Source of the DNA: Escherichia phage Mt1B1_P17
Sequence record: NC_052662.1
Strand: one strand, 5' to 3'
DNA length: 64,000 bases
The notes beneath the pieces were generated by a model, which was not told the origin of the DNA, did no database searches, and saw nothing but the letters and a program-made list of their open reading frames with translations. Below are positions 63,400 through 63,960 of the stretch, piece after piece. The position numbers and the translations under genes are program-made. Position 1 is the stretch's first letter. Every line of letters starts with the position of its first letter.

Positions 63400-63960
63400 T
63401 CATCGTTAGCCATCTTTCATGGCAATCATCAATCACCAACATCATACGATCAATCTTAAGGAATTACAATCGAATTATCATAGGGGATTCCTATCAATTA
63501 TCCCATATATACCGATTATTTTTGACACCCCACTCTTGTATAAAAAGTAACCCAAAATATCTACGGGGAGAGATTATTTCGGGACACCCTGTTTCATGGC
63601 AATCATGGCAAGAATATCTAATAGAATCAATATGATATGGCAAAAATCATGGCGCATACGTAAGAAGTGCTTAACGCGAATTTTCGGGCCGTCAGGTCCA
63701 CGCAGCGACAATTCCCAAATATCATGCGAATGAGAATAATTATCATTCGTATTCAATGACTTATGCAAGGCTCATGCCAACGTAGCGACAAGGTGGGCCA
63801 CTTGATTATAAATCACACAAACACTTATTTATCAATAGGTTGGCAACTTCATCATATGACGGAACAATGTCAACTAATCCCGCTCATGACAAGCAGACTA
63901 TTATTCATATGAGAATGATTATTATTTAAACGTTTATTAACATAAAAACCAGAATAAATC
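63400..63960. repeat. repeat-rich AT-rich region upstream of the leftward accessory block
   Basis: CATGGCAATCAT at about 63419 and 63596; ATGAGAAT(A/G)ATTAT at about 63731 and 63909; inverted repeat CGAATGA...TCATTCG; GCGACAA x2. Confidence 0.45.

Follow-up and report, generated by a model that had tools for sequence, protein, structure and literature searches.

The DNA analysed here is a stretch of 64,000 nucleotides from Escherichia phage Mt1B1_P17 (sequence record NC_052662.1), hereafter called the window. Its right end, at 63400–63960, holds several short repeats next to a leftward gene block, and the question is what this region is. The first-pass annotation, made from the letters alone, considered a promoter or regulatory array for the leftward block, a replication or packaging element, or a remnant recombination site. 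According to our comparison with related phages, the region is very probably the left physical end of a phAPEC8-like (Phapecoctavirus, Stephanstirmvirinae) virion genome, composed of a direct terminal repeat (DTR) and a leader, with boxes that resemble operators of the host iron sensor Fur.

The genome end and its direct terminal repeat

A megablast search of a phage collection with positions 62600–64000 matched 119 records, nearly all of them from phAPEC8-like coliphages (top match 98.5%). The records of five relatives begin or stop exactly at the base equivalent to window position 64000. In the Schickermooser record, 329 bp at the start and 329 bp at the end are identical copies, equivalent to window 63672–64000; the Schickermooser paper gives the terminal repeat as 328 bp (Korf et al., 2019; PMC6563267). 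WPEC1 comes from a different laboratory and its record runs in the opposite orientation; each of its ends bears a 328-bp copy, corresponding to 63673–64000. The record of phi92, a member of the sister genus Justusliebigvirus, annotates DTR-L and DTR-R of 343 bp each, and in a five-way alignment the left end of phi92 matched window position 64000 base for base. The DTR copies at the two ends are 100% identical in Schickermooser, WPEC1, and phi92. The copy in the window was 96.7% identical to that of Schickermooser over 329 bp and 96.3% identical to that of WPEC1 over 328 bp. The length of the DTR is 329–332 bp in Phapecoctavirus-type genomes and 343 bp in Justusliebigvirus. According to one 2025 paper, direct terminal repeats likewise form the genome ends of Stephanstirmvirinae. 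Judged from these sequences, base 64000 is almost certainly the physical DNA end, and 63672/3–64000 the left copy of the short DTR of the family. The DTR and its position are certainly known for the family already, and the window copy is one more member. The features of this end are as follows (the caret marks a cut; strands are given in the lists where a feature has one).

63672–64000: DTR, left-end copy, 329 bp (328 bp in WPEC1 and Korf et al., 2019); the second copy is at the other genome end, outside the window
63664–63684: inner DTR edge, GAAGTGCT^TAACGCGAATTTT, cut between 63671 and 63672, or 1 base rightward according to WPEC1
63984–64000: terminal motif GTTTAAGAGAAGATGCT, outer cut after 64000; CAACAT comes next in concatemer-type records
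63956–63973: conserved imperfect palindrome AAATCAAGAATTTTCTGA, 28–45 bp from the DNA end, a possible terminase or end-recognition element

The two DTR edges have the motif GCT^YAAC in common (GTTR^AGC on the genome strand). Its conservation was followed in an alignment of 13 sequences from three clades, namely the phAPEC8 group (clade 1), phiWec188, phiWec181, and PsgM04F with one IMG/VR contig (clade 2), and phi92, muut, Paula, and BME3 with one IMG/VR contig (clade 3). The core GCT^(T/C/G)AAC was present at every inner edge, and at the outer edge wherever the fetched DNA extends there. The inner edge read GCT^KAACGCGA in 13 of 13 genomes and the outer edge GCT^CAACA in the 12 whose fetched DNA reaches it. 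In the orientation of the window, the outer edge is GAGAAGATGCT^CAACAT; the edges of phi92 are GAGGTGCT^TAACGCGATTTTC and GTAGGCT^CAACAAAT. The same core at two independently defined edges is what would be expected from a site-specific terminase nicking both sides of a T7-type junction. The shared core is unannotated in the inspected records of phi92, phAPEC8, and Schickermooser, and literature searches found no report of it. It gives a simple means of orienting and trimming records of this group, many of which start at the wrong place.

The short terminal repeat and the concatemer junction of the T7 type are established knowledge, and the cutting mechanism is inferred here from short-DTR phages of this kind. 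In replicating concatemers, a single repeat copy would join two genomes; the terminase would then nick both edges and the repeat would be duplicated, giving every packaged genome a repeat at both ends. The likeness to T7 consists of a short non-permuted repeat of a few hundred bp, left-end genes reading inward, and non-coding, repeat-rich flanks of the junction. There is, however, no sequence homology to T7, and the present phages are large myoviruses without an RNA polymerase of their own. The phi92 and Schickermooser DTRs are homologous to that of the window, end at the same base, and share its cut-site core at both edges; the layout is also the same (DTR, a leader of ~0.3 kb, and a first early gene reading inward), and nothing essential differs. 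The earlier suggestion of a packaging element was right in kind, with 63672–64000 as the DTR that the terminase would cut.

The first pass had also taken the window to break off within the region and had allowed that the repeats could be part of a coding sequence continuing past its end. With 64000 placed at the physical DNA end, virion DNA has nothing further to offer, and the gene-free right end is settled as a true end carrying the family DTR, with nothing missing beyond the window. Looking further is informative only in concatemer-type records, which continue past this point with the other genome end, and there the next 0.9 kb is also non-coding. In the records that run through the end point (SKA64 and phAPEC8), the gene-free stretch is ~1.5 kb long, made up of the 613 bp of the window and ~0.9 kb of T/G-rich DNA, and closes at the terminator of phAPEC8_0017.

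Several points speak against the assignment or limit its precision. The window holds one genome end only, and the DTR was therefore assigned by homology to relatives. The inner edge is uncertain by 1 nt (329 vs. 328 bp). The annotated 342-bp ‘DTR-L’ of BME3 (record PP239276) sits 72 bp off the phi92-type edges. A 415-bp duplication with copies 446 bp apart occupies 2640–3913 of the same record; the duplication and the shifted DTR annotation are probably an assembly or annotation artefact. The annotated DTR of BME3, with its 72-bp offset and the odd duplication, was left out of the evidence.

Two side observations were made in these records. The ~0.9 kb of T/G-rich non-coding DNA beside the DTR at the other genome end (SKA64, L001 6402–7310) has many short repeats, including TTGTTGGTT-type runs, two copies of CGTGCTAATGAT, and GTGCTAAT-like motifs that resemble the cut-site core. 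Records labelled as Campylobacter phages (B15 and others) and an Acinetobacter phage (ABPW7) are 95–98% identical to these coliphages here, and the Pseudomonas-labelled PsgM04F is ~71% identical in this region and ~94% in the adjoining junction. The host labels of these records look doubtful.

Fur-type boxes inside the repeat

All four repeats reported in the first pass are present at the places given for them, and they are rarer in shuffled sequence than observed. Two of them, a direct repeat and a palindrome, meet within the DTR in a pair of boxes:

63726–63750: Fur-type box 1, GCGAATGAGAATAATTATCATTCGT, containing CGAATGA-N9-TCATTCG and the 7-1-7 core TGAGAATAATTATCA; 18.7 bits
63905–63929: Fur-type box 2, TCATATGAGAATGATTATTATTTAA; 20.0 bits

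The direct repeat ATGAGAATnATTAT lies at 63730–63743 and 63909–63922 and grows to 28 nt with 79% identity, the copies being 179 bp apart; the inverted repeat is located at 63727–63749. By score, dyad symmetry, and conservation, this palindromic direct repeat is a pair of look-alikes of host Fur operators. Compared with the 7-1-7 Fur box TGATAATnATTATCA, the core of box 1 (TGAGAATAATTATCA) agrees in 13 of 14 positions and that of box 2 in 12 of 14. A search of the 64 kb for sites with no more than one mismatch to the 7-1-7 core gave box 1 alone. Read directly from the sequence, box 1 agrees with the 19-bp Fur consensus at 15 of 19 positions.

For scoring, a 19-bp position weight matrix (PWM) was made from the best consensus match in each of nine classical Fur-controlled K-12 promoter regions (fepA-fes, fepD-entS, fepB-entC, fhuA, tonB, ryhB, exbB, fecI, and cirA). 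In a scan of both strands of the 64 kb, the top two sites were 63911–63929 (20.0 bits) and 63726–63744 (18.7 bits); the next site, outside the DTR, had 13.7 bits. The training sites scored 15.5–21.7 bits on themselves and 5.1–17.2 bits in leave-one-out. In the 17.5-kb ent cluster, used as a control, all sites of at least 14 bits fell in three Fur-regulated intergenic regions. In 20 Mb simulated with the dinucleotide composition of the window or of the junction itself, sites of at least 18.7 bits occurred at 0.45–0.6 per Mb, i.e., 1.5–2 × 10^-4 per DTR.

Comparison with individual operators gave the same picture. An 18-nt stretch of box 2 (ATGAGAATGATTATTATT) is identical to the E. coli ryhB operator; for box 1, 20 of 22 positions agree with that operator. 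Read on its reverse strand, box 2 is also similar to the fhuA operator (15 consecutive nt in common). The phage boxes have the 7-1-7 dyad and hexamer-array structure of the ryhB and fhuA operators; they differ from these in lying in the terminal repeat of a lytic phage and not at a host iron gene, and their overlap with a functional promoter is putative. Both boxes were found, at 16.7–25.3 bits, in 13 of 13 genomes of the three clades, and in the phi92 clade the core of box 2 is a perfect 7-1-7 (TGATAATGATTATCA). At the level of sequence, the case for the Fur boxes, the interesting part of this region, is statistically strong, and they probably do bind Fur. The boxes are unannotated in the inspected records of phi92, phAPEC8, and Schickermooser; the consulted passages of the Schickermooser, BME3, and phiWec papers do not mention them, and literature searches returned no report of Fur boxes in phage terminal repeats. 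A phage-borne Fur operator as such has a precedent, since Fur represses the stx1 promoter on Stx1 prophages; the difference is that there the phage is temperate and the operator serves a toxin cargo gene and is not in the genome ends.

Further Fur-type sites occur in the junction past the window, namely a third box (20.5 bits) in Phapecoctavirus and two boxes (19.1 and 18.3 bits) in Justusliebigvirus. For boxes three and four, the nearest cut site is 0.7–0.95 kb away. The third box overlaps a good promoter on the plus strand (TTGCAT-N18-GATAAT), placed where a classical repressor would bind; in SKA64 this overlap is found in L001 7064–7345, at the other genome end and ~0.7–1.3 kb past the window end. 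On its 3′ side, ~240 nt are conserved between the genera (82% mean identity) and are followed by a bidirectional terminator. Within the phAPEC8 clade only, a 32-codon hydrophobic open reading frame (ORF) with a strong ribosome-binding site (RBS) lies behind the third box; it was rejected as a candidate gene, its start being lost in phiWec188 and phiWec181. RNAalifold gave weak covariation on the conserved ~240-nt stretch, and Rfam gave no match. Judging from its sequence, the stretch may be a Fur-regulated non-coding RNA (ncRNA) or a small gene.

A site of this type was also present in a more distant phage. LL12 (rV5-like, Vequintavirinae) has a predicted DTR of 459 bp (PMC6658697). This PhageTerm-defined DTR (L024 1467–1925) carries an 18.7-bit Fur-type site at 1613–1631. 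Like the DTR of the window, it is short and surrounded by extensive gene-free DNA (the annotated genes on either side are ~2.5 kb apart). It differs in that its published edges have no GCT^YAAC and that it has one strong box only; the blastn matches to this region did not include LL12.

Possible roles of the boxes

The role that we prefer is control of transcription. Iron-loaded Fur bound to the DTR boxes would repress or block transcription that starts in the repeat or crosses it toward the early genes, and early expression would thereby be tied to the iron state of the host. Box 1 overlaps a minus-strand TTGCAT-N18-GATAAT that points at the early genes; this match is found in this clade only and lies below the top-8 scan list. 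The preference comes from the repressor position of the third box together with the same TTGCAT-N18-GATAAT layout at box 1. Transcriptional control as the main role of the boxes is nevertheless suggested tentatively, with a chance somewhat short of even.

There are findings that tell against this role. The distance from the box centre to the nearest DTR edge is maintained (62.5–66.5 and 83.5–85.5 bp), while the spacing between the boxes ranges from 179 to 195 bp. A fixed distance to the edge with a varying spacing speaks for a link to the ends or to neighbouring elements, and it agrees with a packaging or other end-related role no less well than with control of a promoter. In the sigma-70 matrix scan, no top-tier promoter overlapped either DTR box, and none was both strong and conserved; the TTGCAT -35 element of box 1 has no conserved counterpart in the other clades. 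The PWM itself is built on nine sites that were chosen by their consensus match.

The most probable alternative takes the boxes as positioning elements for the cutting or handling of the DNA ends, with transcription control secondary or absent. The binder would be the small subunit of terminase, another phage protein, or Fur as an architectural cofactor comparable to IHF at lambda cosB. Each box stands at a fixed distance from the nearest cut site in three clades despite the changing DTR length and spacing, each virion DNA end bears one box 60–90 bp from its tip, and the DTR boxes have no strong conserved promoter over them. In lambda, the IHF site I1 in cosB binds a host DNA-binding protein that assists terminase; it is likened to the boxes here as a site for a host protein that lies close to, and at a set distance from, a terminase cut. 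The protein and the motif are different there, and lambda has cohesive ends and no DTR; the comparison is an analogy only. Boxes 3 and 4 do not fit this explanation, lying 0.7–0.95 kb from cut sites, one of them on a promoter in the repressor position. The match to host Fur operators also far exceeds the dyad symmetry that a phage protein would need. The LL12 host-factor screen paper never mentions fur, which is weak evidence against an essential role of Fur. We regard this alternative as rather unlikely, at about one chance in four.

Titration of Fur is less probable still. In this case, hundreds of replicating genomes with 3–4 strong operators each would act as a sponge for Fur and derepress host iron uptake, much as multicopy Fur boxes titrate Fur in the Fur titration assay. 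The 3–4 conserved sites of at least 18 bits per genome unit, concentrated in non-coding DNA, would agree with this. Fixed positions relative to the DTR edges would, however, be needless for a sponge, and the sites are few compared with cellular Fur, which amounts to thousands of molecules per cell. A sponge is improbable as the explanation of the boxes.

Returning to Fur-dependent control, a broader proposal can be made with reserve, being distinctly short of an even chance and drawn from sequence comparison. Lytic coliphages (Phapecoctavirus, Justusliebigvirus, and perhaps rV5-like Vequintavirinae) may build the host iron sensor into their genome ends, with Fur-Fe2+ on two operators at fixed cut-site distances and on one or two more in the junction, gating early and junction transcription by iron, aiding end processing, or both. 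No description of iron gating or of an end-processing role of Fur in these phages was found in the searchable literature. These coliphages are candidates for therapy, and the conserved near-consensus Fur operators in their terminal repeat and junction suggest that their infection of a host may be iron-dependent. Laboratory media are rich in iron, unlike the gut and infected tissue, where little of it is available. Should infection depend on iron in this way, results obtained in rich medium could be a poor guide to the performance of a phage in vivo.

The leader, its first genes, and the remaining repeats

The stretch 63388–63671, between the first gene and the DTR, is the leader of the first leftward early operon and also its control region. 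The linear DNA that infects the cell has no sequence upstream of 64000, and the first genes would therefore be transcribed from within 63388–64000. The features of the leader and the other repeats are the following.

63043–63387, minus strand: first gene inside the genome end, homolog of phAPEC8_0018, 114 aa, phrog_2510; its RBS GAGGAG is the reverse complement of 63394–63399
63441–63469, minus strand: candidate sigma-70 promoter of the first gene, TTGTAA-N17-TATGAT; predicted, with a moderate score of 8.3 bits
63602–63573, minus strand: second candidate promoter, TTGCCA-N18-AATAAT, its -35 element TTGCCA lying within TTTCATGGCAATCAT copy 2
63480–63545: block A (..CCTATCAATTATyCyATATATACC..TTATTTTTrACAC), 127–192 bp inside the DTR edge
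63415–63429, plus strand: TTTCATGGCAATCAT copy 1, phAPEC8 clade only
63592–63611, plus strand: TTTCATGGCAATCAT copy 2, overlapping two tandem copies of TCATGGCAA
63700–63711, plus strand: ACGCAGCGACAA, GCGACAA repeat copy 1, with copy 2 at 63780–63791; phAPEC8 clade only

For the candidate promoter at 63469–63441, transcription is predicted to begin near 63434, which would make the leader ~47 nt long. In the second clade this promoter has the form TTGTAA-N17-TA(A/G)GAT, and it was the only candidate of the sigma-70 matrix scan to be positionally conserved. The scan found no top-tier promoter: the best minus-strand scores, 8.3–9.8 bits, rank 74th–163rd within the window and mark moderate candidates only, and the best match (63835–63805) has a non-conserved -10 element. 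The phi92 clade has a strong minus-strand promoter (13.3 bits) between its two Fur-type boxes. The PHIRE ‘promoter’ motif of the phAPEC8 annotation (GTAGGGCGGCAATGGTGCCGC) does not occur in the window. The promoter or regulatory array that the first-pass annotation proposed for the leftward block is probably right for a part of the region, namely the conserved candidate promoter and the Fur operator look-alikes. The first two genes of the operon (114 and 122 aa, window 62685–63387) are tandem paralogs, both matching phrog_2510; neither matched a Pfam family.

The blocks conserved across the clades are block A, AAATATCT at 63556–63563, the inner DTR edge, 63714–63765 around the palindrome, 63830–63848, 63909–63927 (the second ATGAGAAT box), AAATCAAGAwwwTTCTGA at 63956–63973, and the terminal TTTAAGArA...GCT. 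Block A (65 bp) is the most conserved non-coding block outside the DTR and is kept into Justusliebigvirus; it may be an operator, an UP element, or a packaging signal. Outside the closest clade, only the ATGAGAAT boxes and the palindrome are conserved among the repeats of the first pass. The other two, CATGGCAATCAT and GCGACAA (two copies of each), are lineage-specific and were found only in the phAPEC8 group. CATGGCAATCAT, at 63418–63429 and 63595–63606, grows to the exact 15-mer TTTCATGGCAATCAT at 63415 and 63592, 177 bp apart, which has exactly two occurrences, with 0.35 expected in 64 kb at up to two mismatches. GCGACAA, at 63705–63711 and 63785–63791, grows to ACGYAGCGACAA at 63700 and 63780 (2 matches vs. 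0.28 expected). ATGAGAATNATTAT had 3 matches vs. 0.34 expected.

The spacing within the two unrelated pairs at 63415–63429/63592–63606 and 63730–63743/63909–63922 is nearly equal (177 and 179 bp, ~17 helical turns), which may be a coincidence. An old tandem duplication of ~178 bp was considered as its source and rejected: only short motifs align, and TRF finds no such array.

A replication origin in or at this region, with the repeats as iterons, would account for a long AT-rich, gene-free stretch with short repeats in an otherwise densely coding genome, and for the conservation of block A without coding. DnaA-box-like matches are, however, no more frequent than expected (14 in 11.4 kb vs. 17) and form no cluster, the short direct repeats besides the Fur boxes are lineage-specific, TRF finds no iteron array but only two trivial arrays of 7–9 bp, and the GC skew of the window follows gene orientation. 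We give an origin little credence.

It is very improbable that the region is an ordinary AT-rich intergenic promoter region with repeats arising by chance. The failure of two of the four repeats to be conserved past the closest clade would suit this explanation, as would the number of promoter-like hexamers, which is only about twice that in shuffled sequence (11 vs. 6.1). It is contradicted by the exact coincidence of the end with three independent DTR definitions, by two sites per DTR with Fur-matrix scores expected at ~2 × 10^-4 by chance, and by the conservation of the boxes across clades.

Equally implausible is a recombinase-linked remnant, whether an attachment site or, as the first pass had allowed, a recombination site; so is a hidden small gene or ncRNA. 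Short direct and inverted repeats are present and one 43-codon ORF is open in two clades, but the phages of this family are lytic and their DNA ends are fixed and defined, the annotation has no recombinase within ~5 kb, there is no tRNA or att-like feature, the ORF has no codon-position bias and stops in the third clade, and an ncRNA finds neither an Rfam match nor a terminator.

The details behind this are as follows. The view that the region has no convincing gene held: 63388–64000 is without a credible ORF, the longest having 64 aa. The sole ORF still open in the second clade (63419–63550, 43 codons) was rejected as a small gene, with substitutions spread evenly over the codon positions (10/11/11), stops in the phi92 clade, and no RBS. 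The Rfam scan of 62000–64000 and of the whole junction gave one sub-threshold archaeal snoRNA match only, which was rejected, and a terminator scan of 62600–64000 gave none. ARAGORN detected no tRNA in the region and none within 54 kb of it. The GC skew changes sign near 10 kb and again near 44 kb, following the blocks of opposite gene orientation, and shows no origin-like signal at the right end. At the opposite side of the window, positions 7007–8929 of the minus strand carry 10 tRNA genes (Met twice, Ile, Pro, Gln, Gly, Thr, Asn, Ser, and Arg).

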